Notes: generated by a model from the letters alone, not told the origin. Shown: positions 1,524 through 51,260, counted from the stretch's first letter. The stretch: DNA of 64,000 bases from Chiloscyllium plagiosum (GCF_004010195.1 NC_057718.1:9930872-9994871), one strand, 5' to 3'. Translations and numbers: made by a program.

Positions 1524-2498
1524 TTTCAGTAGATGTCCGACTAACACGGACATCTACTACAAATCGACCAACTCCCACAGCTACCTGGACTACACCTCCT
1601 CCCACCCTGCCCCCTGTAAAAACGCCATCCCATTCTCCCAATTCCTTTGTCTCCGCCGCATCTGCTCCCAGGAGGACCAGTTCCAAAAACGTACAACCCA
1701 GATGGCCTCCTTCTTCAAGGACCGCAATTTCCCCCCCGACGTGGTCGACGATGCCCTCCACCGCATCTCTTCCACTTCCCGCTCCTCCGCCCTTGAACCC
1801 CGCCCCTCCAACCGCCACCAGGACAGAACCCCACTGGTCCCCACCTACCACCCCACCAATCTCCATGTACAGCGCATCATCCGCCGTCACTTCCGCCACC
1901 TCCAAACAGACCCAGCACCAAGGATATATTTCCCTCCCCTCCCCTATCAGCTGTCCGTAGAGACCACTCCCTCCGCGACCCCCTTGTCAGACCCACACCC
2001 CCCACCGACCCAACCTCCACTCCCGGCACCTTCCCTTGCAACCGCAGGAGGTGCAACACTTGCGCCCACACCTCCCCCCTCACTCCTCTCCAAGGCCCAA
2101 AAGGAAACTCCCATATCCGCCACAGATTCACCTGCACCTCCACCCACATCATCTACTGCATCCGCTGCAGCCGGTGTGGCCTCCTCTATATTGGGGAGAC
2201 AGGCCGCCTACTTGCAGAGCGATTCACCCTCCCACGCTGTGTGTGTGTGTCCCTCCCTCGCTGTGTGTGTGTGTGTCCCCCCCACCCCAGTCTGACCTAT
2301 CACCCTCACCTTGACCTCTTTCCACCTATCACATTTCCGACGCCCCTCCCCCAAGTCCCTCCTCCCTACCTTTTATCTTAGCCTGCTGGACAAACTTTCC
2401 TCATTCCTGAAGAAGGGCTTATGCCCGAAACGTCGATTCTCCTGTTCCCTGGATGCCGCCTGACCTGCTGCGCTTTTCCAGCAACACATTTTCAGCTC
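1524..2498 (+). mobile_element. 5'-truncated Penelope-like element (family A): end of RT/thumb, linker, GIY-YIG start and 3' terminal repeat
   Basis: TDIYYKSTNSHSYLDYTSSHP...RRICS; after a frameshift it reads CNRRRCNTC...IIYCIRCSRCGLLYIGETGR (GIY-YIG). 14-bp TSD tagaatttgaaaca at 1510-1523 and 2499-2512. Confidence 0.92.
2403..2438 (+). ncRNA. Minimal type I hammerhead ribozyme motif (PLE family A)
   Basis: attc CTGAAGA a GGGC ttat GCCC GAAA CGTC gatt: conserved core, stem II, palindromic ACGT stem III and GUC cleavage triplet. Confidence 0.8.
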
Positions 2499-3029
2499 TA
2501 GAATTTGAAACACTCAACCTCTGGGTTGCTCTTTTAGCTCCATAATCACTGCACGTTTGTACCGCAAAATCGCTCACTTTCATAGCGGCACACGAAGATG
2601 TGCCCACTACTCTGTGTACTAGTGCAGCCTCGCAACGAATCTATGATAACCAGTTAGCATTAATGCCCTGTTGTTTCGACTACGCGTGGATTGGAACTCA
2701 CAAATGTGTCAACATCCAATGCGCTACAGAACTATTTTCCAGAGAATGTCAAAAATATCTCCAGGCATTTTGAAGCTGTGGGGAAAAACATATCCCAAGT
2801 CAGGAAAGAAAAATCGTAATGGAGTTAGTGGATGAAGCTAAATCGTTATAAAAGTGGTGATGCAGCCAGTAATGGAGGATTGACAGTCACAATTTTCCAA
2901 TTTAAGTAAGTTTTAAAATACACCAGTTGCTTGACTTTCAGCGGTTTTCAACTTGGTGATGTTATCCCAAGGTAATCATATCCCCAAAGTGGGGGGGGGG
3001 GAACATGTGCACTTTAGCTCTCATTAAAC

Positions 3030-3510
3030 TGCAAATGAATATTATGGCTTTGATTGTGGTCAGCACACTTTCTGGCATGGATTCTGAAGAAACTGCACGG
3101 AGATTCAACAGAGTAGTTCCAAAGGTGAATGATTTTAATAAAAAGGGGAAGCTGCACTTGCTCTCCTGGGAGCGAGGGAAGATTTGCGAGAGGATGACAA
3201 GATTTTAACATGTTTGGATTTACATGGACAAAGTAAAGCTCTTCTGTTCAGCTCATGATTTAAACTTTCGGGCAAGAGGTACTTTGTGAGAGAAGCTTTT
3301 TTCGGAAGTGAATGATAATAGCTAGAACTCTCAGTCCATTAGGGTGGTGGAAGCAAAGCTGATAAATGGGTGGGCGTTTGAAAGAATTAAATTTGCAGGC
3401 AATGGGAATGGAGCAGGAGAATCTGACTGATTGGATTAGATTGCTTCACAGAGAGCTAGCATTGACTTAGTGGAGCTGAATGGTCTCCTTCACTGCCAAG
3501 ATGATACTTT
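3030..3510 (+). mobile_element. Old, degraded CR1 LINE 3' fragment
   Basis: Decayed similarity to the CR1 ORF2 C-terminus and 3'UTR seen in other copies (ggagctgaatggtctccttc). Confidence 0.55.
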
Positions 3511-3564
3511 GAATTGTGCTGTGCTCTGGCTGCTGAGAGCTGACTATTAAAAATGGGGTTGGAT

Positions 3565-3920: not shown

Positions 3921-4098
3921 TTAGCTCAGTTGGCTGGACAGTTGGTTTGCAAAGCAGTATGATGTCATTATGATGATGGACTGACCTTCTCAACCTCTTC
4001 CTCTCGCTTGAGGTATGGTGGCTGTCAGCTTAAATCGCCACTAGTCCTGTCTCTCTAATAAGAGAGCAGCCCAGTGGTCTGGTAAAACTATGGTGACA
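3921..4098 (+). mobile_element. Second tRNA-derived SINE family (other copies ~23160-23290 +, ~43270-43480 -, ~45740-45960 -)
   Basis: tagctcagttggctgg head and a shared body ctcaacctct...tgaggt(g/a)tggtg...ttaaa.cacca...ctatggtgac recurring at four loci. Confidence 0.65.
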
Positions 4099-5223
4099 CA
4101 ACAAATAGTGAGTCATTAAACTGACTTGAGGTCGACAGAAGGAATGGAAAGCGTGGGAAAGAAACCTTGGTAAAATACTGTTCACTTGGCATTATTTAAA
4201 AGATAGCTTTGCAGAGTTCCTGTTATTTTTTGAGTAGATCCTATTGAATAAAATATGTGTAAATTATTGCATTGGATATGAATGGAAACTTACTTTGAAT
4301 GGGATGAGCTGTTAGATGTATTTTTATTGTGCCTTGGACTTGAGAATGATTCTGTTGTAAATCTTCCATCATTAAAGAAGATTGAAGAACAAGGCAGAAA
4401 GTATACCATGCAACCTCCGTTAAGTAAATCTATTAATTGGGCATTTTGCCAAGCCTTATTTGCAGGGTTGGTGCAGGCTTAATGTATCCTGATGCCTTTA
4501 TGTTACCTAAAGTTTATTTGTAGCACTGAAGAAAATTGCCTGTATTGGCTTAGCTCACTGGAGTGTGTGCCACATATCTCATGAGAAATGCGTTAAAACA
4601 GCAACTGCGGGAAAACATTTTCAACAGGTGAGGCATACGGTTAACATTTCTGTTTTGATCAGAATCGGAAAATGTTGAACATGTAGCCAGTTTTCGTTAA
4701 ATGATGATGCAATGAATAGGAAACCAAATGGCCTTGTATCAATCATCTCTTTGATGTTTAACCTCAGCCTTCATTTTTGTTCATTTAAATGTTCTACAAA
4801 ATCAAAGGTGTTATGTCAATGTAAGATGATGTTGTAGCAAAAATGATAGAAAAATCAGATGACTGAAGTTTTCTATGGTGGCTGTGAATAATTTCCCACC
4901 AATTCTTTTCCCAATCTCTAAATATCTGGGACCACACATCAGTGTCACATGAAGAAGGTCATTGACTTGAAATGTTAAGTCCAGGTCTCTCTCTGCAGAT
5001 TCTGCCAGATCTGCCATATTTTTCAGCATTGTCTGTTGTTCTTATTGATGCTACCAGCTGTGGCTTTGGACTGAATAGAATAACACTTGAACAGATCATT
5101 CAGAAATTCATCAAGTACATATGCTGTGAATCAGTATTTGTAATTTAAGAAGCTTCTATTTTGCTATTTCCTTCTGAATTTGATGATGTGGATGCAAAAA
5201 AATGTCTTCTGGGTATACTTATG

Positions 5224-5589
5224 ATTTGGAGATGCCGGTGTTGGACTGGGGTGTACAAATTTAAAAATCGCACAACACCAGGTTATAGTCCAACAGGTTT
5301 AATTGGAAGCACAATAGCTTTCGGAGCGACGCTCCTTCATCAGGTGGTAGTGGAGGGCTCAATCCTAACAGAATTTATAGCAAAAATTTACAGTGTGATG
5401 TAACTGAAAGTATACATTGAAAAATTGATTGTCTGTTAAGCTTTTCAGTTACATCACACTGTAAATTTTTGCTATAAATTCTGTTAGGATTGAGCCATCC
5501 ACTACCACCTGATGAAGGAGTGTCGCTCTGAAAGCTAGTGCTTCCAATTAAACCTGTTGCACTATAACCTGGTGTGGTGTGATTTTTAA
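5224..5589. mobile_element. Non-coding fold-back mini-element of PLE family B with two opposed hammerhead motifs
   Basis: Long inverted arms (~5260-5410 vs ~5440-5589). 15-bp TSD ctgggtatacttatg at 5209-5223 and 5590-5604. Confidence 0.85.
5506..5540 (+). ncRNA. Minimal hammerhead motif (family B); antisense twin at 5310-5346
   Basis: cac CTGATGA a GGAGT gtc GCTCT GAAA GCTA gtg: stem I cac/gtg, palindromic AGCT stem III and CUA triplet. The twin has a perfect GGAGC/GCTCC stem II. Confidence 0.75.
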
Positions 5590-6834
5590 CTGGGTATACT
5601 TATGGTTTCGAAAGAATCCCATCAACAAAGCAAGCAACTTGATCTATGCACAAACTTCCCTCTCATACCCTGTTACACACACTACCCTGCCCAATTTTCC
5701 TTTGTAACACAACTTTCACCTTTAACCCTATTTTTTCATTCCCTTTCTAATGCTTCCCAACTCCCAAACCAAGGTACACATTGGCCTGCAAATGGGAAGG
5801 CTTTTGATTCTCGGAAAATGTTTTTTTTTGGATGGAGCGACAATGTTTTGGTTGCCATTCTTAATCCACCTGTTTCGGCACATTAGGTCACAGCCCTGTG
5901 ATCATTATATCCTAAGTTGCGGCTTGAACCCAGACTTTCTGGACCAGAGGTAGGGACACCACCTCTGCACCCCTAAAGCGATTGCAGTAGGATTTGAGCT
6001 GTTAAACTGTTTGTTTGCCCATTTGTCAACACTCTTGCTCTTCCAGTTGTAGAACAACACCAACCTTTTGCACTCACCCAAGTGTAGATCTTTTAACGTC
6101 AGTTGTTCTTCCAGTGCTTAAGTCAGACATCCGTCCGCCAAAAGCCGTCAAACCGGTCGATTATCTCTTCATTTGAGATTTTGCTCACAGCACAAGTAGG
6201 TGGTGAACTTCAAACAACTTCATTGTACAATTGGAATTGTGATGAGGCAAGTGTTTTCATTTTTGCAATTGTTCATGACCGGCGACTGGATTGTTTAGAA
6301 GTCTCAATTAGTACACTTGAAGTATTTTAAATTCACACAAGAGGAACACCCTCTTCTATTGTTACAGGCAATTATATCCCTGTGCTGGGAGGTATCGCAA
6401 CTAGAGTGTGATTTGAATGTTGTTTTATTTGGACAGACAGCTGGTTACCGTGTGGCTTTCCTTCATGACGCGGTGTCATGTTTGAGGAAACCAATTGCCG
6501 TGAGGTTTCCTGGATAGGTTGCCTCAACCGGAAAGGCGTCCTTTTCCAAAGCGATGCTGAAGGTTTGCGAGAGAGACAGAAAGGAAGCATGATGAAATAA
6601 AAACAATTTCTACACAACAAAATCCCACAAACAATAATAGGATCATGACAGATCATTTGAGTTTAAGGATTATTGAGGGATCAGTATAAACCAGAACAAT
6701 TAGTTGAAACTCAGCTGTTTCCTAATCACCCTGTTCAGAGATGCAATTACATACCTCTGGAGCAGGTCGGACTTAAACCTGAGCCTTCTGTCCCAGAGCT
6801 AAGAGTTGGTGCTTTGTCTGGGGTCAAGGGCCTA

Positions 6835-7645
6835 GTCATAAAGTCATAGAGATGTACAGCATGGAAACAGACCCTTCGGTCCAACCCGTCCATGCCGACC
6901 AGATATCTCAACCAATCTAGTCCCACCTGCCAGCATCCGGCCCATATCCCTCCAAACCCTTTCTATTCATATACCCATCCAAATGCCTCTTAAATGTTGC
7001 AATTGTACCAGCGTCCACCACATCCTCCGGCAGCTCATTCCAGGTCTCTTTTATATCTTTCCCCTCTCACCCTAAACCTATGCCCTCTAGTTCTGGACTC
7101 CCCGGCTCCAGGGAAAAGACTTTGTCTATTTATCCTATCCATGCCCCTGATAATTTTGTAAACCTCTATAAGGTCACCCCTCACCCTCCAACGCTCCAGG
7201 GAAAACAGCCCCAGCCTGTTCAGCCTCTCCCTATAGCTCAAACCCTCCAACCCTGGCAACATCATTGTAAATCTTTTCTGAACCCTTTCAAGTTTCACAA
7301 CATCTTTCCGATAGGAAGGAGACCAGAATTACATGCAATATTCCAACAATGGCCTAACCAATGTAGAGCTGCAACATGACCTCCCAACTCCTGTACTCAA
7401 TACTCTGACCAATAAAGGAAAGCATACCAAACGCCTTCTTCATTATCCTATCTACCTGCGACTCCACTTTCAAGGAGCTATGAACCTGCACTCCAAGATC
7501 TCTTTGTTCAGCAGCGCTCCCTAGGACCTTACCATTAAGTGTATAAGTCCTGCTCTGATTTGCCTTTCCAAAATGCACCATCTCTCATTTATCTGAATTA
7601 AACTCCATCTGCCACTTCTCAGCCCATTGGCCCATCTGGTCCAGA
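6835..7645 (-). mobile_element. CR1 LINE 3' part (ORF2 C-terminus + 3'UTR)
   Basis: KLERVQKRFTMMLPGLEGLSYRERLNRLGLFSLERWRVRGDLIEVYKI; HFGKANQSRTYTLNG; tail gtttccatgctgtacatctctatgact. Confidence 0.92.
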
Positions 7646-7649
7646 TGGT

Positions 7650-8560
7650 TGCAGAACAGAGGGACCTAGGGGTTCAGATACATAATTATTTGACCTTCCT
7701 GTCACAGGTCGACAGGATGGTTAAGAAGGCATTTAGCACGCTTGCCTTCATTGCTCAGACTTTTGAGTCTGAAGTTGGGACATCATGTTGAGGTTGTACA
7801 GATGTTGGTGAGGCCTCGATTGGAATGCTGTGTCTGATTCTGTTTGCCCAGTTACAGGAAGGATATTTTTAAGCTGGAGAGGGTTCACGAGATTTATCAG
7901 GATGTTGCTAAGAATGGAGGATTTGAGTGATAAGGAGTGGCTGGAACCTTTTTCACTGGAGTGTAGGCGGTTAAGAGGTGACCTTATAGAGGTTTATAAA
8001 ATCATGAGGGGTCTAGATAAGGTGAAAGGCAGTTGTCTTTTCCCATGGGTGGGGAATTTCAAGACTGGGGAAGAAATAGAGTCAGAGATATGCAACACAG
8101 GAACAGACTCTGTGTTCCAATTTGTCCATGCCAACCAGATATCAGAGATAAACCTAGTCCCATTTGCCAGCATTTGGCCATATTCCTTTTAAATGTTGTA
8201 ATTGTACCAGCCTCTACCACTTCCTCTGGCAGCTTATTCCAGGCACGTACCACACTCTGTGAAAAGGTTGCCCTTTAGGTCCCTTTTAAATCTGTACCCC
8301 CTCACCTTCAGTCTGTGCGCTGTAGTCGTGGACTCCCCCACCTAAGGGAAAATAGCTTGTCTGTTTACCTGATCCATGCCCCTCATGATTTTAAAAAACC
8401 TATTTTAAGATGAGAGGAGAAAGATTTATAAAGGACATGAGGGCAACTTTTTTTATACACAGAGTGGTTCGTGTGTGGAATGAACAGCCTCTTCGGAGAA
8501 TCCGTGTGAACTCAATGGGCTGAGTGGCCTGCTTCCACACGATCTGGATTCTATGATTCT
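7650..8560 (+). mobile_element. CR1 3' fragment with a nested opposite-strand CR1 piece (~8075-8395)
   Basis: RRLRGDLIEVYKIMRGLDKV on +; RAWNKLPEEVVEAGTITTFKR on -. Confidence 0.82.
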
Positions 8561-9454
8561 ATTTTTTAAACAAGATAATTAAGTATTCCCCAAAATGGCA
8601 GGAAGTTCGGAGGACATCAATGGTTCGTCCCTACCCAATCTCTAATCTCCCAGTTGCTGTAAATGTTTTATGAGCTCTCACTCTGTGTATGGTTCAGAGA
8701 AGGAAGACTTAAGTTCTTTTGTTGACTGCCAGCTTACCCTGGCAGTTGGCCTATTTGGCAGTGGACAGGGACCTACCTCTGAGACTAGTTATTACTGATT
8801 GCAACTTACAACTGCAATTTTGACAGCAGTAGTGATTTACCACTTCAAAGTTTGGGCGACCTATCAATGCTAATGGGAAGAGTCAGGTTTCAGTATTTGT
8901 TTGTCTGACTGCAGTCTGCCAGTATAAACAAATATATTCATCTTGTTTCCATACAGAAGAAGCATTGCTGTTGTAAAGTTAATGCTGCTACTTATTGTTG
9001 CTCCTACACAGTAACACAGGAACAGGACGTTGTGGAATTAACTGAACTCTATCAGGATCAGTTCTTTGAGCCTAATTAAAGAATTATATTTTTCCACAGT
9101 ATACTAACCGCACAGGAATGCTGAAGATCCCTCACTTGATCTCAATGCCAGCCCTTCTATTGGAAGTAACAGTTGATAACATCAGGTGAAGCGTGTACAA
9201 GACTCCTTTGTCCAGTGAAGTAGGTTGCAGTACATTGTCAAGGTGAAGATGTGTAATCGTCAATTAGGTGGGAGTTGTCTGAGAATGATGCCTTCTGGGA
9301 GACATGAGGCACTGTAAAAGTGAAACTGTTACTTGCTTTATTTCCCTCTGCTGCAGGTACAGTCTCACACTGAGGAACCACTTGTATAATAGTAATGTCA
9401 CTCAGCTAATAATCCAGAGGCTCAGACTAATGTTATGGTTTTAATTTTACCATC

Positions 9455-10160
9455 GGTCAGTGCATGGAGTACAGGAGTTTGGAGGTCATTGCAGCTGTAC
9501 AGGACATTGATTAGGCTGCTTTTGGAATATTGTGTTCAATTCTGGTCTCCCCACTTTGGGAAAGATATTGTACAACTTGAAAGGGTTCAGAAAAGATTGA
9601 CAGGGATGTCACCAGGGTTGGAGCTGTAGGGAGAGACTGAATAGGCTCGGGCCATTTTCCCTTGAGTGTTGAATACTCAAAGAAAGTGAGGACTGCAGAT
9701 GTTGGAGATCAGAGTCAAAACATGTGGCACTGGAAAAATGCAGCAGGTCAGGCAGCATCTGAGGAGCAGGAGAGTCACTTTTAGGCATAAACCATTCATC
9801 AGGCTGAGGGTGACCTTTTATAGAGGCTTATGAAATCATGAGGGGCATGGATAGAATGTATAGTCAAGGTCTTTTCCCTGGGGTAGGGGAATCCAAACTA
9901 AAGGGCATAGAATTAAGGTGAGGGGGAAAGATTTAAAAGGGACCGAAGAGGCAACATATCGAAATAGAGGGTGGTGCGTGTATGGAATGAGCTGCCATCC
10001 AGAGGAAGCCAGTGGAGGCTGGTACAATTACAACATTTAAAAGGCATCTGGATGAGCATATGAATAGGAAAGGTTTGGAGACATACAGGCCTTGTGCTGG
10101 GAAATGGGACTCGATATTTGGTCAGCATGGATGAGTTGGGCCTCAGTGACTCTATGGCAT
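9455..10160 (+). mobile_element. CR1 3' fragment interrupted by a PLE family A terminal piece (~9680-9802, minus)
   Basis: LEYCVQFWSPHFGKDIVQLERVQKRLT; the insert aaagtgaggactgcagatg...gcaggtcaggcagcatc...ttcatcagg is the reverse complement of the PLE end. Confidence 0.82.
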
Positions 10161-10226
10161 CTGATGGAATTTAAACTAAATTAATGAAATCTGCAATATT
10201 GAAAACAAAATCTGGTCTTGGTAATG

Positions 10227-10431
10227 ATCAAAGTCAGAAATCTCACGACCCCAGGTATAGACTAACAGGTTTATTTGAAATCCCAAAGCTTTGGAGCGTG
10301 CCCCTTCATTAGATGAAGTGGACGGAAGCAGCCCTTCAAAAGCTTGGGATTTCAAATAAACCTGTTGGTCTATAACCTGGTGTCGTGTGACTTCTGACAT
10401 TGTCCACCCCAGTCCAACACCGGCACCTCAC
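10227..10431. mobile_element. Degenerate family B PLE fold-back mini-element
   Basis: Arms aacaggtttatttgaaatcccaaagcttt / aaagcttgggatttcaaataaacctgtt; tail caccccagtccaacaccggcacctc; 10-bp TSD cttggtaatg at 10217-10226 and 10432-10441. Confidence 0.75.
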
Positions 10432-12505: not shown

Positions 12506-13929
12506 AAAATAGGCCATTTGGTCTATTTCTGCACTCAGTGAGATCATGACCAATCTGATAACACTCAAATCCACCTTCATGCCTTTTCCCCATCATTGTT
12601 GATTCCCTTACTGGTTAAGTACAGTCAAGGTTGGGAAGGTGGATTTATTTTAATCTACAGCTGTGACCAGCACTGTGTTAACATGTGCAGAGAACCAGTA
12701 TAGACACGATGGGCTGAATGGTCACCTTCACTACAATACATTTATGATTCTGCAATGCTGTGTTTCTGCACATGCACATTTGTTGCACCATCTAGTGGTG
12801 AAACATTGACAATACTTCCTTTGGAGGCAAATTAACTGTAGTTGCTGCTATGATCTATTTACTTACTAGCCTTTTAGAGACAAATCTACCACACAGAAAA
12901 GAGCCCTTTGGCCCATTGAGTTCATGCCAATCATACCAAACACCTCAATATTCTAATCTCATTTTCCAGCACTTGGCCCATGGCCATATGTGGCTACATT
13001 CCCAAAAGAGCAATGGACCCAAAACTGTGGTCATAGAGTCACAGAGATTGCCAGCACGGAAACAGACCCTTTGGTCCAACTCGTCCATGCTGACCAGATA
13101 ACCCAACCTATTTAGTCTCACCTGCCAGCGCTTGGCCCATATCCCTCTTAACCCTTCTTATTCATAAACCATGATGCCTTTTAAATGTTGTAATTGTCCC
13201 AGCGTCCACCACTTCTTCTGGCAGCTTATTCCATACACTCACCACCCACTGCGTGAAAACATTGCCCCTTACGTCCCTTTTTAAATTTTTCCCCTCTCAC
13301 CCTAAACCTATGCCCTCCAGTTCTGGACTTCCCCCACCCCAGGGAAAAGACTTTGTCTATTTATCCTATCTATGCCCCTCATGATTTTATAAACCTCTAT
13401 AAGGTCAGCCTTCAACGCTCCAGGGAAAACAGCCCCAGCCTATTTAGCCTCTCCCTATAGCTCAAATCCTCCAACCCTGGCAACACCCTTGTAAATCCTC
13501 TCCAAACCCCCTCAAGTTTCGCAACATGCCTCTGATAGGAAGGAAACCAGACTTGAACACAACACTCCAAAAGTGGCCTAGCCAACATCCTGCACAGCCG
13601 CAACATGACCTCCCAATTCCAAAATCGATGCTCTGACCAATAAAGCAAAGCATGCAAAACGCTGCCTTTGCTAACCTATCCACCTGCGACTCTACCTTCA
13701 AAAAGCTATGAACCTGCACTCCAAGGTCTCTTTGTTCAGTAACACCCCCCAGGATCCTACCATTGAGCATGTAAGTCCTGCCCTGATTTGCTTTCCCAAA
13801 ATGCAGCTCCTCGCATTTATCCAAATCAAACTCCATCTGCCACTCCCCAGCCCATTGGCCTATCTGATCAAGATCCCACAGTAATCCGAGGTAACCTTCG
13901 GTGTCCATTACACCTCCAACCCTGGTGTC

Positions 13930-15050
13930 TCCTGGACAGTCTCAGATTCCTCCCTCCCCTTCCTCGACCTTTCTATTTCTATCTCAGGCGACCGAATCAA
14001 CAAACCGACCAACTCCCACAGCTACCTGGACTACACCTCCTCCCACCCTGCCCCCTGTAAAAACGCCATCCCATTCTCCCAATTCCTTCGTCTCTGCCGC
14101 ATCTGCTCCCAGGAGGACCCGTTCCAAAAACGTACAACCCAGATGGCCTCCTTCTTCAAGGACCGCAATTTCCCCCCCCGACGTGGTCGACGATNNNNNN
14201 NNNNNNNNNNNNNNNNNNNNNNNNNNNNNNNNNNNNNNNNNNNNNNNNNNNNNNNNNNNNNNNNNNNNNNNNNNNNNNNNNNNNNNNNNNNNNNNNNNNN
14301 NNNNNNNNNNNNNNNNNNNNNNNNNNNNNNNNNNNNNNNNNNNNNNNNNNNNNNNNNNNNNNNNNNNNNNNNNNNNNNNNNNNNNNNNNNNNNNNNNNNN
14401 NNNNNNNNNNNNNNNNNNNNNNNNNNNNNNNNNNNNNNNNNNNNNNNNNNNNNNNNNNNNNNNNNNNNNNNNNNNNNNNNNNNNNNNNNNNNNNNNNNNN
14501 NNNNNNNNNNNNNNNNNNNNNNNNNNNNNNNNNNNNNNNNNNNNNNNNNNNNNNNNNNNNNNNNNNNNNNNNNNNNNNNNNNNNNNNNNNNNNNNNNNNN
14601 NNNNNNNNNNNNNNNNNNNNNNNNNNNNNNNNNNNNNNNNNNNNNNNNNNNNNNNNNNNNNNNNNNNNNNNNNNNNNNNNNNNNNNNNNNNNNNNNNNNN
14701 NNNNNNNNNNNNNNNNNNNNNNNNNNNNNNNNNNNNNNNNNNNNNNNNNNNNNNNNNNNNNNNNNNNNNNNNNNNNNNNNNNNNNNNNNNNNNNNNNNNN
14801 NNNNNNNNNNNNNNNNNNNNNNNNNNNNNNACCTCTTTCCACCTATCACATTTCTGACGCCCCTCCCCCAAGTCCCTCCTCCCTACCTTTTATCTTAGCC
14901 TGCTGGACAAACTTTCCTCATTCCTGAAGAAGGGCTTATGCCCGAAACGTCGATTCTCCTGTTCCCTGGATGCTGCCTGACCTGCTGCTCTTTTCTAGCA
15001 ACACATTTTCAGCTCTGATCTCCAGTATCTGCAGACCCCACTTTCTCCTC
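13930..15050 (+). mobile_element. PLE family A insertion (contains an assembly gap) with hammerhead motif at 14920-14955
   Basis: WTVSDSSLPFLDLSISISGDRIN...KPTNSHSYLDYTSSHP; its 3' end is nearly identical to 2315-2498 plus the tail gatctccag.atctgcagac...actttctcc. It splits the CR1 FADD motif region. Confidence 0.88.
14195..14830. other. Assembly gap (N run)
   Basis: Run of n. Confidence 1.
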
Positions 15051-15895
15051 AAAGTCATCTGCAAACCCACCAACTATACCTCCCATGTTCACATCCAAAT
15101 CATTTATATAAATGACGAAAAGCAGTGGACCCAACAGTGATCTTTGCGGCACTCCACCAATCACAGGCCTCCAGTCTGAAAAACAAACCACCACCCTGTG
15201 TCTTCTACCCGCAAGCCAGTTCTGTATCCAAATGGTCAGTTCTCTCTATATACCAGGAGACCTAACCTTGCTAACCAGTGTCCCATGGGGAACCCCGTCG
15301 AACACCCCACTGAAGAGCATACAGATCATATCCACCACTCTGCCCTCATCAATCCTGTTTGTCACTTTTTCAAAGAACTCAACCAAGTTCACGAGGCATG
15401 ATTTCCCCACGCCCAAAGCCATGTTGACCATCCCAAATCAGTCTTGCCTTTCCAAATATGTGCAATTCCTGTCCCTCAGAATTCCCTCCAACAACTTGCC
15501 CACCACCGACGTCAGGCTCACCAGTCCACAGTTCCTTGGCTTGTCCTTACCACCCTTTTTTTTTAAACAGTGGCACCACGTTAGCCAATTTCCAGTCTTC
15601 CAGCACCTCACATGCGACTATTGATGATACAAATATCTCAACAAGGGGCCCAGCAATCACTTCCCTAGCTTCCCACAGAGTTCTCGGCTACACCTGATCA
15701 GGTCCTGGGGATTTATCCACCTTTTATGTGTTTCAAGACATCCAGCACTTCCTCCTCTGTAATACGGACATTTTTTCAAGATGTCACCATCTATTTCCCT
15801 ACATTCTATATCTTCCATGTCCTTCTCCACAGTAAATACTGATGCAAAATACTGGTTTAATATCTCCCCTTCTCCTGTGGCTCCACACCAAGGCC

Positions 15896-17425
15896 TACGT
15901 TCGTGACACCACCCACGCCCTCCACCTCCTCCAGGATTTCCGCTTCCCCGGTCCCCAACGCCTCATCTTCACCATGGACATCCAGTCCCTGTACACCTCC
16001 ATCCCCCATCACGAAGGACTCAAAGCACTCCGCTTCTTCCTTTCCCGCCGTACCACCCAGTACCCTTCCACCGACTCTTTCTGTGGCCATAACAGTTACT
16101 ATATAAATGCAATTTAATTTTAATAACTCAATAGTTACTCATAGAAATCTAATGTTATATCACTGGGATGCTTTTTTGCCATTATTATGGCAATAATGTT
16201 TTTTTCAAATTTAAAAAAAAGTTATGATATTTCAGCTACTTTAATCCCATGTGTATCACTGATGATTTGTATTTACTCTGTGGAAATTTTAATTGAGTAG
16301 AAGATTTTACTGCATTTTACTTTCTGATTTGCTGTTTGAGAATACTTCAGTGTAATTGGCTGCCAACTCCCTGCGGTGATATCACTGTTACTGTATGCCT
16401 AGTGTTTGTCTTGATCTTGCACATATCAAGAAAGGGAAACTTCATGCCTCAGAGATCACTAGATAGCAGAAAATCCCTTTAATACTTCAAAGTACTCTTT
16501 TGGTATGATCCTAGATATTGAATATTGTTAGATATTATTACTGGAGCGAATCATAGATTTACATTTAAATAGTTCCCATTTCTGTCTTTGTTCACTCCTT
16601 TCCTCAGCAATATTTTGTGTTTGATTTTGTCTACTTTCTGTGGTTTTATTTACCCTAATGAAGAAGAGCATATCTTCTCAACATCACAACTATTGATCTC
16701 ACCCTGCTTGGCTGTTGTATGGAACCCCCTACGTGTTAACCCCTTAAAGCCAAATACATAACAATATTGTCAAATTTGATGGAATTTTAATGCATTTACT
16801 TTAGGGGAAATTTGGCATGTTAATATGCTGCAGTTTTTCTTATCTGCGATGTTTTGTGTTATGTTGCTGAAAATATTACTGATGAAATACTTAGCAGTTG
16901 TAGTAAAATCATGCGTATACTTAGGATGAAGAAGATTATGAGTACCACATATGCTTGGTCCAGTTCTTGTTGGATTCATTTGGATATCAAAGTTGAAACT
17001 TTATTGCTGGAACAGCACAGCAGGTCAGGCAGCATCCAGGGAACAGGAGATTCGACGTTTCGGGCACAGGCCCTTCTTCAGGAATGAGCAGAGAGTGTTC
17101 AGCAGGAGAAGATAAAAGGGATCCTTCCAGCCCGGCACCGCCTTCCTGGCCTGCAGTCTTCTTCTTGACCTCTCCGCCTCCATCCTACTCCGACCTATCA
17201 CCCTCACCTTGACCTCTTTCCACCTATCACATTTCCAACGCCCCTCCTCCAAGTCCCTCCTCCCTACCTTTTATCTTCTCCTGCTGAACACTCTCTGCTC
17301 ATTCCTGAAGAAGGGCCTGTGCCCGAAACGTCGAATCTCCTGTTCCCTGGATGCTGCCTGACCTGCTGTGCTGTTCCAGCAATAAAGTTTCAACTTTGAT
17401 CTCCAGCATCTGCAGACCTCACTTT
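15896..17425 (+). mobile_element. Composite PLE insertion: RT fragment + ~0.9 kb non-PLE DNA + inverted terminal-repeat module
   Basis: 15-bp TSD ctccacaccaaggcc at 15881-15895 and 17426-17440, with the CR1 continuing on both sides. RT motif YVRDTTHALHLLQDF...FTMDIQSLYTSIPH at 15896-16075. 134-bp inverted repeats at 16986-17119 and 17267-17400. Confidence 0.85.
17301..17336 (+). ncRNA. Minimal hammerhead motif with perfect stem I; antisense twin at 17050-17085
   Basis: ATTC CTGAAGA a GGGC ctgt GCCC GAAA CGTC GAAT; predicted cleavage after 17332. Confidence 0.85.
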
Positions 17426-18849: not shown

Positions 18850-19247
18850 GGCGAAAGTCTAGATTAGAGTGGTGCTGGAAAAACACAGCAGGTCAGGCAG
18901 CATCAGAGGAGCAGAGAAATCGATGTTTCGGGCAAAAGCCCTTCATCAGGAGTGAGTTAGAGAGCGGGGAAATGAGGAAACTGGTGAAGTCCACATTGAT
19001 GCCCTGGGGTTGAAGTGTTCTGAGGCAGAAGGTGAGGCGTCAGGTGGTGTGGGAGTGGCGGGGGAGGCGGCCCAGGACCTGCATGTCCTCAGCAGACTGG
19101 GAGGGGGGGTTGAAACGTTCGGCCATGGGGCGGTGGGTTTGATTGTGCGGTTGTCCTGGAGATGTTCCCTAAAGCACTCTGCGAGAAGGCGTCCAGTCTC
19201 CCCAGTGAAAAGGAGACCACATCGGGAGCAACGGATACAATACTTTT
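18850..19247 (-). mobile_element. Internally deleted PLE (GIY-YIG remnant + hammerhead terminus) inserted in CR1 ORF1
   Basis: YCIRCSRCGLLFTGETGRLLAECFREHL; terminus ctgatgaagggcttttgcccgaaac on -; 16-bp TSD gccatgcatt(t/c)atctg at 18834-18849 and 19248-19263. Confidence 0.85.
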
Positions 19248-20038: not shown

Positions 20039-20262
20039 GTCAAGATTAGAGTGGCGCTGGAAAAGCACAGCAGGACAGGCAGCATCAGAGGAGCAGGAAA
20101 ATCGACGTTTCGGGCAAAAGCCCTTCATCAAGAATTCCTGATGAAGGGCTTTTGCCCGAAACATCGATTTTTCTGCTCCTCTGCTGCCTGGCCTGCTGTT
20201 CTTTTCCAGCGCCACTCTAATCTTGACTCTAATCTCCAGCATCTGCAGTTCCCACCTCCGCC
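20039..20262. mobile_element. Family A PLE palindromic mini-element
   Basis: Near-perfect inverted repeat 20039-20227 centred on gaattc (20132-20137), with two back-to-back hammerhead cores and the tail ctccagcatctgcag on the right only. Confidence 0.85.

Positions 20263-22245: not shown

Positions 22246-22248
<3 letters not shown>

Positions 22249-22290
<42 letters not shown>
22249..22290. repeat. (TG)21 microsatellite
   Basis: Direct reading. Confidence 0.95.
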
Positions 22291-22292
<2 letters not shown>

Positions 22293-26389: not shown

Positions 26390-26884
26390 TCTGTCTTATT
26401 GATTAAGTCTCTTCATCTTTTTAGAATGGGCATATTGGTTTCAGTTCTTTCATATGTCAATTCCAGAATTTTCTTAACGTTACATTCTCAAGTGAACTTT
26501 AACAATAGGTGCCATGTTGGCCCAGATAATGCATTGAAGGTGTGAGGTGCCCTGTGGGAGGCTGTCTGTGCCCCAATGTTCAGACTGATTCTAATCCAAA
26601 AAAGGGTTTTACAGAATAAGTTCACTTGAGAATATAACTTTAGGAAAGTTCTGGAATTGACATATGAAAGAACTGAAACCATTATGCCCATTCTAAAAGA
26701 TGAGAGACTTAACAAACAATCTCGGTCGTTTTCAATATATAATTTCAGTTATATCACACTGTAAAACTTTTGTGATAACTTCTGTGTCCTACAATCTTAA
26801 CCACCGGATGAAGGAGCAGTGCTCCAAAAGCTAGGGCTTCCAACTAAACCTGTTGGGCTATAACCTGGTGTTGTGATTTTTAAC
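26390..26884. mobile_element. Family B PLE terminal region with partial inversion and decayed hammerhead (~26801-26840)
   Basis: Inverted arms ~26403-26499 / ~26618-26712; the 3' part matches 5440-5589 and 34780-35050. Confidence 0.8.
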
Positions 26885-33018: not shown

Positions 33019-33135
33019 GAGGCTGTTTGTTTGGAAGGTGCTGTTGAAAGAGCCTTGGTGAGTTGCAGTGGAAGTTTAAGTCCAGGATGAATGATAAATC
33101 TGATGTAAGGCAATCTTGTGGATCTAAAGAAGGGT

Positions 33136-34699: not shown

Positions 34700-35058
34700 T
34701 TGGAGGTACTGGTGTTGGATTGGGGTGCATTGAAGGAGTAATGCATTATCTGGGCCAACATGGCACCTATTGTTAAAGTTCACTTGAGAATGTAACTTTA
34801 AGGAAGTTCTGGAATTGACATATGACAGAACTGAAACCAACATGCCCATTCTAAAAGGTGAGAGACTTTACAAACAATCCAAGTCTTTTTCAATATATAA
34901 TTTCAGTTCCATCACACTGTAAACTTTTGCTATAAATTCTGCGTCTTATGATCCTATACTGCACAACCACCTGACGAAGGAGCAGCACTTCGAAAGCTAG
35001 TGCTTCCAAATAAACCTGTTGGATGAGAACCTGGTGTTGTGTGATTTTTTTTATATAA
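34700..35058 (+). mobile_element. Family B PLE terminal fragment with hammerhead (34968-35002) and inverted tail at its left end
   Basis: cac CTGACGA aGGAGC agc ACTTC GAAA GCTA gtg; 15-bp TSD ctttct(a/g)aacttgct at 34685-34699 and 35059-35073. Confidence 0.82.
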
Positions 35059-38951: not shown

Positions 38952-39185
38952 AGGCAAAAGTGAGGGCTGCAGATGCTGGCAACCAGAGTTTAGGTCAGAA
39001 TGGTGCTGGAAAAGCACAGCAGGTCAGGCAGCATCTAAGGAGCAGGAAAATCGACGTTTTGGGAAAAGGCCCTTCATCAGGAATAGGGCCTATTGCTGAT
39101 GAAGGGCTTTTGCCCAAAACCTCGATTTTCCTGCTCCTCAGATGCTGCCTGACCTCCTGTACTTTTCCAGCACCACTCTGATCTA
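38952..39185. mobile_element. Family A PLE fold-back mini-element
   Basis: Inverted arms around aatagggcctatt with two decayed hammerhead cores; 14-bp TSD aacttctactccat at 38938-38951 and 39186-39199. Confidence 0.87.
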
Positions 39186-45203: not shown

Positions 45204-45289
45204 GTAAGGGCGCTGCGTGAAACCGCACAGCTTGTTTTAACACTGCCTTCAGTTGCCGCTTTCTGTACTGTCACTGTCCCCTGGCAGTT

Positions 45290-45640
45290 TTCCCCTCTCT
45301 CCAGAGACTGAAGGTTTTTGGTTCAAGCCCACTCCAGGTACTTGGGGCACAACATTCAGGCATCTGCCCTCAACCTGGCTCCAGGGGTAAGCGAGGACTG
45401 CAGATACTGGAGATCAGAGTAGAGTGTGGTGCTGGAAGGCAGCATCCAAGGAGCAGGAGAACTGACATTTTGAGCATTAACCCTTCCTGATGAAGGACTT
45501 ATGCCCGAAATGTCAATTCTCCTTCTCCTTGGATGCTGCCTGACCAACTGTGCTTTTCCAGCACCACACTCTACTTAATACTGCGGAAGTGCTGCACTGT
45601 CAGAGATGCCGTCTTTTGAATGAGACCTTGAACTGAGAAT
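45290..45640 (+). mobile_element. DeuSINE-like SINE remnant interrupted by a decayed family A PLE hairpin (~45385-45575)
   Basis: ggttcaagcccactccag head, then gtgctgcactgtcagagatgccgtctttt..atgagacc; the insert has inverted arms and ctgatgaaggacttatgcccgaaa. Confidence 0.62.
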
Positions 45641-47040: not shown

Positions 47041-49189
47041 ATCAAAAACAGAAATTGCTGGCAAAACATAGCAGGTCTGGCAGCTTCTGTGAGAAGAAAG
47101 CACAGACAACGTTTCTAGATTGGTGACTTCATCAGGGAGTTCTGATGAAGATTCATCGAACTCAAAATGTTGGCTCTGGTGTTTGGGTGGGGTTGTGGGG
47201 AGATGGTGGATGGTAGTGGTGGTGGTATAGAACTTTCCACTGGTTGGAGTCAGCATTGGAGGTTAGCTGTTGTTTACCTGCCAGTTGCTGTTTCTGGTCT
47301 ATTTCGACTTGTTGTGATGGTTGTATGGTGGAGGCTGTCTAATGGAGATTTTAAAAATTAACTTCGAAGCACAGAAAGCAGAATCTTTCACTTCCAGATG
47401 CCAAAATCGCAGATAAATGTGAAAATAACTTGTTTTGTGGGGGGAATCTTGCTGAAAAGAGAGACATTGCTAAAGCTTTCATCAGGACAAGTGCAAGAAT
47501 ACCAAATTTCAAACGATCACACCAATTTGCACTGCAGGGAATAGAGCGTTGATTGGGTAGCAAGTGAGCTCTGGTCAAGGTGTTGCCTTGGAGAAATCAA
47601 TGGGCTCTCCAAGCTTCTGGTTAATCAAAACTGGTGTGCGACTTGAACATTTGTTTGCAGTGAACACATCCCTGTGTGTGCTGCTGCTTCAAGCAGGTAT
47701 AAAGGAGCCACATGATGAGCTCAGTTATCTTAAATTGGTTGTGTATGTAGCTATTAGCCCGTTCAGGATTGATTTTGTAATTCATGTTGTAAATTTTTGC
47801 AAGGCTGGCCTTTATTTTGCTCCCCTACTTGTCCCACAAAGCTGATGTACCATTCTCATCTGCTGATAGTGGTTTGATACAACGGAGTGCCTTGCTGGAC
47901 CTTTAGATAGCAGTCCAAGAGCGTTCATGCAGCATTGGAGTCTCATGGATCCAGTCCAGGTAAAAGACAACAGGTTTCCACCTCTCAATGACTTCAGTCA
48001 ACCACATGGGTCTCTGTTACCACCTGAAAGCCTCATGATCACTTTACTGATGCCACAGTCTTTAAACTAAATTCTGCCTCTCGTACCACCCTGATGGAAT
48101 GTGATTGCGTGATCACCAGATATTACAGTCGCAGTAACACTCAAAATCACTTGAAAGAGCTAGATTTTTTCTGGTGGATCACTTGAGTTGTAACAATGGA
48201 ACTGTCCATGCTCCTTCTGGTCTTCTGGCTACAGGGTCACCCCATCTCTCTGTCTACATGTGACTGCCTGGCGGTTCTATTCCACTTTGTGTTCACACGA
48301 ATCACTTGCTGCTCGTTCACTCCCTTCACTATCACTGTCTACAGTTCAGTGCTTACCCCTCCCCTGGTCAGTGTTAAAAGGATGGTTTACAAAATTGCTG
48401 GGCTGAAGAAAGTCATCCATTGTGAGAAATTTCAATCTAACTTGGTCCCATTAAAACAGAGATTTCATTATTTGCCAAAGTTACTCCATGAACTCAGTCT
48501 TCTAGTGATCTTCAAGTCCACTGCACAATGTGCATTTAGTTACCAGTCCTTGGCTGAGTCACGGGTTCATCAGTCCCTTATTGCCTTGTGCTGCTGTGCT
48601 CTCAGGCTCAGTGTGTTGTCAAAGGCCAAGAGCTGAATAGCTCGGTCTATCAACACAGAATCATCCAAGGTCAGAAGATGTTGTCCACTCGGTGGTCTTG
48701 ACTGAGCTGTGTTGTCTTTGGCTGGTGTGAACATGCAAATTAGGAGGAGGAGTGGGCCATTTGGCCCCTCAAGCCTGTTCCCCATTTCATAATATCTTGG
48801 CCTCCAATTTCCTGCTTATCCCTGTCCGCCTTGTCAGTAAAGAGTGTAACTCGACCTGAAACATTTTCAATTATTGTGCCGTCCCTCCACCCCTCTCTGG
48901 GGAAGGGAGTTCCACGGACTTACAATCCTCTGGAGAAAATAACATCTCCTCAGCTCCTACTTATTAGGGGGGACACCTTATTGTGTCCCCGAGTTCTAGT
49001 TATTTTTAGTCAACCTATAAGTTCACATGGCTGGGGCAGGTAGGACTTGAACCAGGATCTTCTGCCCTAGCAGTAGGGACATGATCACAGTTTAGATGAC
49101 AGATTTAACAGTTCAATTGAAATTCCACCAGCTACCTTTCACAGGATTTGAATGTCTGTCCCCAGAGCATTAACCTGGCCCTCTGGATT

Positions 49190-49895
49190 TTAGATTTAGA
49201 TTTTCTTTTCACATGGACTCAAGTACAGGAGTATATAACGTTGCCCCACACAGCACAATCCTAGGTATGAAGGTACCTTGGTACAAACAACCTAGGTACA
49301 AAGTAGTAAGAGAAACCGAGTAAAACATTCGGCATTATCTTCATAGAATAAGTAGAAAAATAAATAAAATATTAGTTTAACATCCTTCTTAATTTAAACT
49401 AGTAAAATAAAGGAATTAAGTTAAAGGTTCAGCAGAACTGGATGAGTCTTCTGCTTATCCCATTCTTGGGAGATCTCAGCTGCCTGTTCTCAATGCCGCT
49501 GCTGCATATACTCTAGGAGGTTGGGGGGAGATCCCTGACAGCTCGCTCCGGCTGCGTTGGGTTGTGATGCCATCGCTGCTGCTCCTGCTGAAGCGGCAAT
49601 ATCCCTGATTTCCTGCTGCTGCCTCCGGAACATGACTGGACAGGACCCACTCGCACACTGAGCCACCGCCACAAGACACCGGGAGACTGGGCCGAGAGAC
49701 ACCACCATCACCAGACACTGAGAGATCGGGCCAAGATTCTGAGAGACCAGGCTGAGACACCTCTATTCGCCATCGAGGCTGGGAGTAAAGAAAAAAAAGC
49801 ACCAAGAGAGACAAAACAAAGAGGGGGATAAAAAAAAAGAACCAAACAGAGCGGATGAGCTCTGGCTGAAGCGTCCTACTCCACCTCCGTCTTGA
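49190..49895 (-). mobile_element. Putative non-autonomous Rex/Babar-related element
   Basis: The minus strand starts gtcaagacggaggtggagtagg (resembles CAAGATGGCG LINE starts) and ends gtccatgtgaaaagaaaa(tctaaa)2, like the Rex tail at 33940-33973. No RT ORF. Confidence 0.45.
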
Positions 49896-51102
49896 CTTTC
49901 CTTTATGCCACCATCCCTGCATGTCCCCCATTTCTAATGTCTGCCATGTGGGAAAATGATCATTGTGACCCTCACTGGTTGTTCTCCCTCTGTCACGTTT
50001 CTCCCTTTGCCCTCCACACCCATCCTCTCCTCTCCTTCCATTCCCTCATGCCCCCCTGCCTCTCCACGTCCTGCCCCTCTGCTCAGCCACACTCCTCTCA
50101 GACATCCTGTCACCATAACAACCAGGATCATTTCTATTTGTCATCTGTTTGAGGTGTATTTCTGTGGATCTGAAAAGCTCAGACAAAATACAGATAGTTT
50201 CCACAAACAGTCTCTGGAGAGGACTTACTGTAAGCCAGTGGGGAAACAATTACATAAGCTCCAGACAGAATGACCCAAGCAGAAAGTAATCTCCTGTGGC
50301 CACCATAAGTCTTATTCTGAGGGGTCATGACACTTGGGAGTACAACATCAAATTATATTTTTATAATGCCTTTCACATAATGCCATTTGCCTGTTGAACC
50401 ACATGAGATATTGTGCTACGCAACCAAAGCTTGGTCAGAGGTAGGTTTGAAGGATCATCTTAAAGGAGGAAAGCAAGGTAAAGAGATGAAGTGGTGTCGG
50501 TTTGGAATTCCTGAGCTTAGGGCCAATGTAACAAAATGCACAGCTCCTGATGGTGGGAGTATTAAAACTGCTGATGCTCAAGAGGCCAGTATTAGAGAAA
50601 CACTGATATCTCAGAGGGTCTTGGGACTGTTGGAGATTACTGAGTTAGGGAGGAGTGAGGTCATGGAGGAGCATGATAACAGGGGTGAGACATAGTCATA
50701 CAGCATGGAAACAAACCCTTCGGTCCAATTCGTCCGCACCATCAAGACATCCCAATCTGACCTAGTCCCATTTGTCAGCATTTGATCCATATCCCTCTGA
50801 ATCCTTCCGATCTAGATGCCTTTTAACTGTTGTAATTGTACCTGCATATACCACTTCCTCTGGCAGCTCATTCCATACATGCACCACTCTCTGCGTGAAA
50901 ACATTACCCCGCAGAAGTGGGAGTAAGTGGCTTTAGTCAGTACTCAACAAAGAGTTGTTGCCTTTTAGTTTGTCTAAAGTCTATCATTCTTTCTTCGCTG
51001 AAATATAGAACACCTCTGCTCAAGTTTACTAATGTCAAGCTAACACCAGCTGAATCCCCAGCACAAGTGCTCTGCTAGACTCCATTACCTACACTTTTCA
51101 AA

Positions 51103-51260
51103 GTGTAGGTAATGGAGTCTAGGTAAAGTGATTCCTGAAGAAGGGCTTATGCCCGAAACGTCGATTCTCCTGTTCCCTGGATGCTGCCTGACCTGCTGCG
51201 CTTTTCCAGCAACACATTTTCAGCTCTGATCTCCAGCATCTGCAGACCTCACTTTCTCCT
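51103..51260 (+). mobile_element. Family A PLE terminus-only insertion with intact hammerhead (51130-51167)
   Basis: gattc CTGAAGA aGGGC ttat GCCC GAAA CGTC gattc; 15-bp TSD cctacacttttcaaa at 51088-51102 and 51261-51275. Confidence 0.9.

Follow-up and report, generated by a model that had tools for sequence, protein, structure and literature searches.

A 64,000-nucleotide stretch of the Chiloscyllium plagiosum genome (GCF_004010195.1 NC_057718.1:9930872-9994871, henceforth referred to as 'the window', with positions counted from its first nucleotide) contains on both strands short sequences that resemble hammerhead ribozymes, which raises the question of what these sequences are, which elements carry them and whether the differences between them have a meaning. 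A first-pass annotation of the window had sorted them into two families (A and B) of minimal hammerheads, had ascribed them to Penelope-like elements (PLEs) and had proposed that their palindromic stem III makes dimer-dependent cleavage family-specific. Overall, our results make it very probable that the motifs are minimal type I hammerheads without a helix III loop, located in the pseudo-long terminal repeat (pLTR)/3' region of endonuclease-bearing PLEs, that they belong to three lineages (A, B and C), that the window holds the debris of their insertions, and that, with cutting proposed to be dimeric and protein-assisted, copies are made from uncut RNA.

To establish how often the motifs occur, the window was searched with the family A pattern (CTGANGA-N-GGGC-N4-GCCC-GAAA, up to two mismatches), with the mean of 100 shuffles as control. 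This returned 11 matches where the shuffles gave 0.00, and the family B pattern returned four, again against an expectation of 0.00. A strict structural descriptor (core, optional bulge, 4-8-bp stem II, GAA) applied to both strands of the window found members of families A and B only. The occurrence of the two families in the window is therefore correct and far above chance. Every A and B position named in the first-pass annotation was recovered by the pattern searches, and its predicted cut sites, after 17332 (C17) for A and after 5537 (A17) for B, are right by hammerhead numbering; further instances that it did not mention are 45487+, a truncated arm at 45464-45491(-) and remnants at 9775-9802(-) and 10283-10311(-). 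Exact matching in the whole assembly (3.56 Gb, 101,977 contigs) gave 87,506 copies of the A hammerhead with GAAACGTC and 17,087 of the B hammerhead with GAAAGCTA, whereas the reversed pattern, used as control, had no match in the genome. By its loop, family A divides into subfamilies A1 (UUAU or UCAU), A2 (UUUU) and A3 (CUGU).

Having established that the motifs are abundant, we considered which elements carry them. According to the accessible text of Craig et al. 2021 (PMC8557442), a reverse transcriptase (RT) with a GIY-YIG endonuclease C-terminal to it, both within one open reading frame (ORF), defines the endonuclease-bearing PLEs. The A hammerheads at 2407 and 14924 have open frames directly upstream, which correspond to the C-terminal part of an RT-endonuclease protein. 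When the genome was searched with an ORF fragment, 64,869 first-look candidates came up, and the 150 that were scored all had E <= 1.2e-71. At one locus (L028), a gap-free frame of 893 amino acids contains RVT_1 (residues 358-541, 6.4e-8) and GIY-YIG (residues 777-807, 3.5e-4; its 21.2 bits lie just below the Pfam cut-off of 22.6), and an A3 hammerhead stands ~160 nt past the end of the ORF; locus L031 is organised alike, with an A1 hammerhead. An NCBIfam search of the ORF returned only meaningless matches below threshold. For family B, locus L063 has two direct hammerheads 2,517 bp apart around frames that align collinearly to the A protein (338 amino acids at 36% identity, 1e-56; 221 at 29%, 2e-26) and, with an inverted arm upstream, the layout pLTR-ORF-pLTR plus inverted copy, although GIY-YIG was not detected in this copy of the B ORF. 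Going by L028 and L031 for A and L063 for B, the motif lies in the pLTR of an RT plus GIY-YIG element, and family B, with 29-36% protein identity, belongs to a PLE lineage distant from A; the two families have no DNA similarity outside the hammerhead. The same source describes 5' truncation, partial tandems, an adjacent inverted copy and a one-sided 30-40-nt tail as PLE hallmarks, and here 5' truncation, partial tandems (L063), inverted neighbours, a tail extension at one end only and target-site duplications (TSDs) of 14 and 15 bp are all present. The RT/GIY-YIG ORFs adjoining A and the homologous ORF flanked by B thus bear out the first-pass assignment of the motifs to minimal type I hammerheads of PLEs.

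Two further candidates in this context were rejected. Locus L064, in which two A hammerheads lie 2.4 kb apart in direct repeats spanning exactly -3 to +96, might pass for a full element with 100-bp pLTRs, but nothing between them is homologous to the PLE body and we regard the locus as two separate short insertions. Similarly, the ATG in loop II of A1 does not serve as an ORF start of the type seen in PAc, the Poseidon element of Anolis carolinensis, since the frame stops after ~27 codons and the ATG is missing in A2 and A3. As a separate observation, residues ~30-190, in the N-terminal part of the 893-amino-acid L028 frame, contain, in the protein alignment, four tandem copies of a segment of ~40 amino acids.

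The first-pass annotation had also listed four older, decayed variants, and two of these led to a third family. The variants at 4950 and 47140 have a tail box that differs from that of A by a single base, and a gapped genome pattern anchored on this box gave 5,660 matches; among the 100 matches listed, eight are family A copies and the remainder define family C, with the consensus CUGA(G/A)GA-A-GGGUC-ACUG-GACCC-GAAA-CGUU-AACUC. The exact C stem II pattern with seven 5' flank positions had 1,274 matches; the flank that prevails among them, ..CAGUU, pairs with AACU into a helix I of 4 bp. Family C is a third, older family that shares the tail box with A. The claim of decayed variants held for these two positions but not for 33123, which is a chance CTGATGA...GAA within the RT coding region of an unrelated retroelement, and the sequence at 53700 is too decayed to call. 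The 19-base tail box itself (GATGCTGCCTGACCTGCTG, e.g. 2452-2470 and 17350-17368) has 209,519 exact copies in the genome, is common to the older family C with one change, and overlaps the sole conserved small hairpin of the tail, which has 5 bp and is without covariation. The retroelement around 33123 has a 315-amino-acid open frame at 32247-33194(-) with RVT_1 (E=5.8e-16) and no similarity to the PLE ORF, and is probably of the LINE (long interspersed nuclear element) type.

Comparison of the three family patterns shows an invariant core (CUGA-N-GA, GAAA, A15.1/U16.1 and a non-G at position 17, henceforth H17), to which G10.1-C11.1 and an extra A after CUGANGA are added in all three families. 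The cleavage triplet is GUC in A, CUA in B and GUU in C, and the self-complementary dinucleotide 15.2/16.2, with no helix III loop, is CG in A and C and GC in B. Pairing is kept between families where the bases change, both in stem II (10.3/11.3 being G-C, A-U and G-C, and 10.4/11.4 being C-G, G-C and U-A, in A, B and C, respectively) and in helix I (AUUC/GA(A/U)U in A, CAC/GUG in B and AGUU/AACU in C). With a helix II of 4-5 bp and a helix I of 3-4 bp, these hammerheads have a helix III that cannot close within one copy. A stem III reduced to a 4-nt palindrome (ACGT vs AGCT) and the GUC and CUA triplets, as first described for A and B, were found in both patterns, and the statement that the stems differ completely and yet pair was right on pairing but too strong on difference in stem II, G10.1-C11.1 and G10.2-C11.2 being common to all families.

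We next determined how these positions fare among copies that had not been selected for a hammerhead. This non-circular sample, from the start of one contig, comprised 76 A and 16 B copies reached by way of a tail anchor, through the protein or by chance, and stem pairs were counted family by family. Intact motifs were present in 28 of the A and 6 of the B copies. A15.1/U16.1 was A/U in 71/76 A and 15/16 B copies, and 10.1/11.1 was G-C in 63/76 and 12/16, respectively, the remainder being one-sided decay. Pooled A divergence came to 4.6% for the core, 7.0% for stem II and 0% for the non-CpG GAA positions, compared with 18% in loop II and tail and ~50% at N7; it is N7, loop II, position 1.3 and the tail that vary. 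This pattern is what would be expected of active lineages constrained at ribozyme positions. Furthermore, 27 A copies selected by tail type differed by only 1.1% at non-CpG hammerhead sites, which indicates recent activity of family A. Within families, no clear compensatory change was detected: stem changes are one-sided and mostly at CpG, with one A-U among 76 at one pair, and the G.U pairs of the window hammerhead 5509 are likewise plain CpG decay. The stem covariation claimed at first is seen only between families; within families there is one-sided decay without compensatory pairs. Pair 1.3/2.3 of family A was U.U in 56/76 copies and U-A in 7/76, and the helix I first drawn as attc/gaat (AUUC/GAAU, 4 bp, Watson-Crick) is found in A3 (CTGT loop) alone among the A subfamilies and not in most A copies.

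Every motif feature highlighted in the first-pass annotation is a published property of PLE hammerheads. Cervera & De la Peña 2014 (PMC4209133) described in the pLTRs of metazoan PLEs a minimal motif with an extra nucleotide 9/10.1, G10.1-C11.1, palindromic 15.2/16.2 and several consensus families per genome, with opposite-strand pairs 100-700 bp apart and weak cleavage in dimeric constructs only, and proposed action as dimers. The motifs studied here agree with these minimal hammerheads in being of type I without a helix III loop, in the palindromic 15.2/16.2, the extra nucleotide (the first-pass remark that an extra A after CUGANGA is known was correct, this being a listed feature there), G10.1-C11.1 and the short helix I, in their pLTR position beside an RT plus GIY-YIG ORF, and in forming several families with copies that are single or in opposite-strand pairs. 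They differ from those of Schistosoma in the same study in that stem II is 4-5 bp rather than 7-8 bp and helix I only 3-4 bp. Sequence within families is very uniform, as described there for D. virilis, rather than highly variable, and the copy number (87,506 + 17,087) is 10- to 20-fold over the 4,000-9,000 given there for coelacanth and Xenopus. Since the available portion of PMC7229834 gives ~120,000 hammerheads in two groups for axolotl, this number, although large, has a precedent. By this comparison, PLE remnants with hammerhead motifs that obey the published rules make up much of the repeat content of the window and account for at least 10^5 genomic sites. What is added here is the third family, the ORF links of A and B, the absence of covariation within families, and statistics on 5' edges and head-to-head pairs; comparable families of cartilaginous or other fishes may already stand in the supplementary family alignments of PMC4209133 and of a 2026 preprint (bioRxiv 10.64898/2026.07.22.740005).

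The nearest experimental system is PAc, for which the accessible part of PMC11167929 reports that both DNA strands are cut and extended, that RT starts internally at an AC-rich site, that unprocessed RNA is used and that the hammerhead cuts only with protein present. PAc and the elements described here share the order hammerhead, AC-rich RT start site and optional 30-40-nt tail. By eye, the template given in the Methods section of that report has GAAACGUC as in family A, and, again by eye only, its start region 'ACAACACAUU' resembles the AC-rich box 'GCAACACAUUUUCAG' that closes family A copies. Unlike PAc as described there, in which the ORF starts inside the hammerhead, the motif here lies ~75-160 nt past the ORF end, and copies end closer to the cut site. 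In addition, the family A linker has the form CX4CX2C, which Craig et al. 2021 (PMC8557442), as far as its accessible text goes, ascribe to the Neptune and Nematis clades and not to Penelope/Poseidon.

Likenesses to other hammerheads are more limited. In what is accessible of PMC7229834 and bioRxiv 10.64898/2026.07.22.740005, the retrozyme hammerheads, for which derivation from PLE pLTRs is proposed, include those of amphibian satellite 2 and of non-LTR retrozymes, which resemble the present motifs in a weak palindromic helix III, in cleaving better as dimers and, in axolotl, in forming ~10^5 copies in two groups. Retrozymes as described there have a helix III loop, contacts between loops 1 and 2 and tandem units of 150-450 bp, unlike the motifs here, which have neither a helix III loop nor a loop 1; of retrozyme-type tandem arrays only two-copy direct repeats were seen, no dedicated tandem-repeat search having been made. 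These are repeats of the A2 hammerhead unit, 324 bp apart in L032:1-509(-), just downstream of an N-masked ORF region, and 776 bp apart in L065, and may represent either partial tandems of the pLTR or dimers of the retrozyme kind. Finally, a viroid hammerhead (De la Peña & Flores 2001, as cited in PMC4209133) likewise has one unpaired base 5' of stem II, which is A in all three families here, but is canonical, with closed helices.

Taken together with this literature, the following mechanism can be proposed. In transcripts of active master elements, helix III would close only when the 4-nt palindrome pairs with that of a second copy, either the other pLTR of the same transcript or another RNA, to give a double hammerhead in which, judged from strand connectivity, both helix III and helix I would form between the two copies. 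Cutting is predicted after C17 in A, A17 in B and U17 in C and would probably be inefficient and protein-assisted, as reported for PAc. Genomic copies would be made from uncut RNA, with RT starting in the tail ~56-67 nt (or ~100 nt) past the cut site, and priming of RT from both target strands would give inverted pairs. Three natural variants of one minimal ribozyme in one genome, differing in helix I, stem II, palindrome and triplet (GUC, CUA, GUU), together with very young copies, would be convenient material for testing dimer action of PLE hammerheads.

Several results weigh against this reading. Helix I is very weak, being 3 bp in B and consisting of C-G, U-A, U.U and A-U in 56/76 A copies. 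No Rfam hammerhead model matched at its gathering score anywhere in the 64 kb, and none of the four Rfam matches at E <= 10 in 16900-17500 belongs to a hammerhead family; this silence is expected of a motif without a helix III hairpin, yet it means that no curated model vouches for the motif. When imposed on homodimers, the double-hammerhead fold had energies of -13.3 (A1), -14.3 (A3) and -18.9 kcal/mol (the B copy of the window, with helix I lost). At -13 to -19 kcal/mol, this fold falls short of the unconstrained dimer optimum (-19.5 to -33.3) in stability and, by nearest-neighbour energies, is no better than two separate monomers, and unconstrained co-folding did not return a double hammerhead; the low stability fits the weak, protein-assisted activity published. 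In RNA, for which one raw poly-A single-cell run gave 1,549 reads on the A1 reference from both strands, read depth is continuous over the predicted cut site (337/441 before vs 361/501 after, per strand class), and no pile-up of molecule ends was reported, although this library type cannot show 5'-OH ends. Uncut RNA that contains the motif exists, and the run is a weak test of cleavage because most of such reads originate in dead copies that transcripts of other origin include. Depth rises at the 5' edge of the hammerhead, owing to copy number, and 13 reads carry an opposite-strand joint at 2403/2414. Lastly, the 5' ends of genomic copies are not at the cut site, with few at +28/+29, which agrees with uncut RNA as the template.

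Where copies do end was determined for 30 A loci (L033-L062), all from the start of one contig and anchored on the tail box only. In 23 of these the 5' end fell between -11 and +41 of the first CUGA base, mostly at -1 to -6, and in six it lay further upstream, with one locus giving no clear end; an inverted arm abutted the 5' end in 16, and nine had a fully intact motif. Consistent with this, conservation in the pooled A sample starts sharply at -4 and the family C flanks diverge just upstream of AGUU. Most insertions are units of ~95-125 bp, made up of hammerhead and tail, that start 1-8 nt before CUGA, and in all three lineages it is here, and not at the predicted cut site, that head-to-head pairs join; such starts or junctions are seen in the window at 51131, 18956, 20132-20137 and 45487-45491. 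Neighbouring copies are oriented head to head: in three genome lists, neighbours within 500 bp were head to head in 23 cases and tail to tail in none, and the window has seven head-to-head pairs, with tails outward, and no tail-to-tail pair. Among 100 listed B tail anchors, 16 have a head-to-head and none a tail-to-tail neighbour within 500 bp, and in nine of these 16 pairs the spacing, measured between anchors only, is 110-125, the distance predicted for arms that both stop just 5' of the hammerhead. If RT is primed from both target strands, or both strands are cut and extended as in PAc, precisely such tails-outward pairs are predicted. The 5'-end clustering and the exclusively tails-outward pairs give genome-scale support to the dual-strand priming and internal RT initiation reported in vitro for one lizard element, and they raise the concrete question of where the template RNA begins.

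The accumulation of 5' ends at the hammerhead edge may reflect a transcription start there, driven from within the element as reported for the D. virilis Penelope with its internal promoter, or pairing of the two complementary DNAs (cDNAs) at self-complementary hammerhead sequences; L064, had it been a full element, would have favoured the former. A 3' splice site at the edge, of the kind known from D. virilis Penelope, was rejected, as no AG was found by eye at the A or B boundary, as was the string GTCGAATC of A3, which resembles a B box of RNA polymerase III and, by eye, is not present in A1, A2 or B; no ribozyme family of the hepatitis delta virus type or other Rfam ribozyme family accounts for the boundary. 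One might further suppose that the PLE template RNA has the hammerhead as its first structure, through transcription start or 5'-edge processing, and that the self-complementary parts of this hammerhead pair RNAs and cDNAs of both strands in a lineage-restricted manner, so that the lineage-specific helix I and palindrome would keep RNA dimerisation and cDNA joining within one lineage, but we consider this a long shot.

The same ends and junctions bear on the alternative that the motif is kept mainly for a role other than cutting, be it as a protein-binding or folding module near the RT start or as a site where cDNAs pair and join (through stem II, ACGT or GAATTC). The position of 23/30 tail-anchored A ends in -11..+41, the abutting inverted arm in 16/30, the spacing of 9/16 B pairs and the window pair 20104/20138, which is centred on GAATTC, would all suit such a role, as would the low in vitro activity reported for PLE hammerheads (PMC4209133), the finding that cleavage mutants of PAc were without effect on insertion in vitro (in the accessible part of PMC11167929) and the fact that Naiad PLEs thrive without the motif, whose authors, in the available text of PMC8557442, raise the possibility of hammerheads that parasitise PLEs. 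However, it is exactly the catalytic bases, including H17 and A15.1-U16.1, that are conserved across three lineages, which catalysis explains best, and the PLE hammerheads of fungi and plants cleave well as monomers (PMC4209133). Moreover, the sample of 30 loci is small, and the junctions scatter within a range of ~50 nt and often combine a complete arm with a shortened one, an asymmetry that run-off at an RNA 5' end fits at least equally well. We therefore regard a mainly non-cutting role as unlikely.

The proposal that ACGU and AGCU form a selected recognition code, with dimer cleavage within a family only and co-resident PLE lineages insulated from each other, starts from sound pairing arithmetic. 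Bare duplexes score -1.7 (ACGU/ACGU) and -2.5 (AGCU/AGCU) against +0.4 for the cross pair, and in the imposed double hammerhead A/B heterodimers, which retain two of four helix III pairs and one helix I pair, reach only -5.2 to -6.5 kcal/mol, far worse than the homodimers; by this model an A/B heterodimer should not form. Across the genome, palindrome and family also go strictly together: AGCU on the A core was seen in two of 100 listed among 429 AG[C/G]U variants, compared with 87,506 copies with ACGUC, and ACGU on the B core in 0/78. Yet descent alone has the same outcome, and with four palindromic dinucleotides in existence two distant lineages would differ by chance three times in four. 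Single-step variants of the palindrome (AGGU, ACCU) occur at ~0.5% and double-step ones are rarer, which, with the near-absence of hybrids, looks like a neutral picture and gives no sign of selected switching. Furthermore, family C carries ACGU like A, and the young, co-active A1, A2 and A3 share ACGU and a near-identical helix I, with the A1/A3 heterodimer (-13.8 kcal/mol) pairing as well as the homodimers do. A palindromic 15.2/16.2 that varies with family is already a general property in PMC4209133; our literature search brought up no paper that proposes a specificity code, which does not imply its absence from print. Family-specific dimerisation thus follows logically from base pairing, but it is not supported by the copies, in which no sign of selection was found, and a selected code seems to us improbable.

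A chance origin of the hammerhead-like strings within abundant repeats, with no meaning at the RNA level, is scarcely credible, for, although Rfam is silent, helix I is weak, the active fold is not thermodynamically preferred and high copy number alone reflects only transposition, three families, of which A and B have unrelated flanks, retain the core, the extra A, G10.1-C11.1, the palindromic 15.2/16.2 and a non-G at 17 while their stems differ and still pair, and this architecture has been documented for PLEs throughout the metazoans (PMC4209133).

The reading of the motifs as PLE hammerheads applies to lineages, and none of the individual copies in the window is under selection. The conserved core (C3 U4 G5 A6 N7 G8 A9 ... 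G12 A13 A14) is free of change in 6/21 window instances, and core, stem II, helix III and H17 are unchanged together in only six of the 21 listed (2407, 14924, 17054, 17305, 51135 and 5315). In this very repeat-rich genome, the content of the window, collected in Table 1, is insertion debris, mostly dead, that is, 5'-truncated copies and head-to-head inverted pairs whose hammerheads are mostly decaying at CpG sites.

Table 1. Hammerhead-bearing PLE copies in the window and the matches of the two pattern searches
Feature	Position	Strand	Hammerhead(s)	Remarks
5'-truncated family A1 copy	1524..2498	+	2407-2434, intact	3' part of RT-endonuclease ORF (frameshifted, internal deletion, microsatellite) and tail; ORF remnant with GIY-YIG at E=0.031, CX4CX2C linker followed by GIY-YIG start; 14-bp TSD TAGAATTTGAAACA at 1510-1523 and 2499-2512
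Decayed family C copy	4948..5014	+		Stem II of GGGUC/GACCC type, ACGU, U17; tail box CTGCCAGAYCTGC
Family B head-to-head pair, single insertion event	5224..5589	both	5315-5343(-), core and stems intact, helix I 3' strand altered; 5509-5537(+), two CpG -> TpG changes yielding G.U pairs	15-bp TSD CTGGGTATACTTATG at 5209-5223 and 5590-5604; ~39-nt tail extension on left arm only
Decayed family A-like copy	9719..9803	-	9775-9802, remnant	
Decayed family B head-to-head remnant	10275..10393	both	10283-10311(-), remnant	(+)-arm tail 10339-10393
5'-truncated family A1 copy with ORF remnant	13885..15060	+	14924-14951, intact	Tail in extended form; 14196-14830 is N
Family A3 head-to-head pair	16991..17395	left arm 16991-17119(-), right arm 17189-17395(+)	17054-17081 and 17305-17332, both intact	
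Short family A2 hammerhead and tail copy	18869..18956	-	18922-18949	ACGU -> ACAU by CpG decay
Family A2 head-to-head pair	20056..20235	both	20104-20131(-), C3 -> U; 20138-20165(+), ACAU	Joined at palindrome GAATTC (20132-20137)
Family B copy	26750..26884	+	26805-26833, decayed	U4 -> G, GAAA -> AAAA
Family B copy	34910..35049	+	34971-34999	Stem II decayed
Family A2 head-to-head pair	39001..39176	both	39053-39080(-), 39096-39123(+), decayed	GAAA -> AAAA, stem II or helix III change
Family A head-to-head pair	45464..45568	both	45487-45514(+), with GGAC, AUGU	Junction within hammerhead core; truncated arm 45464-45491(-)
Decayed family C head-to-head pair	47071..47171	both	47108-47135(-), 47142-47171(+)	5' edges 6 nt apart
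Short family A1 copy	51131..51227	+	51135-51162, intact	Starts 4 nt 5' of hammerhead
Family A pattern matches	2407+, 14924+, 17058-, 17305+, 18926-, 20108-, 20138+, 39057-, 39096+, 45487+, 51135+			Pattern search
Family B pattern matches	5319-, 5509+, 26805+, 34971+			Pattern search

Three minor observations concern the sequence of individual copies. In the A1 copy at 1524-2498, a (TG)n-rich stretch at 2225-2285 stands in for most of the GIY-YIG region, and numerous length variants of it, seen as joints that go back on themselves, are present among RNA and contig reads. Runs of N lie inside PLE ORF regions not only in the A1 copy at 13885-15060 but also at several loci elsewhere in the genome. 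At locus L015, the tail of a family B copy is broken ~20 nt past the hammerhead by a tRNA-like sequence of the SINE (short interspersed nuclear element) type with a GGGTTCAATTCCCGCC box.

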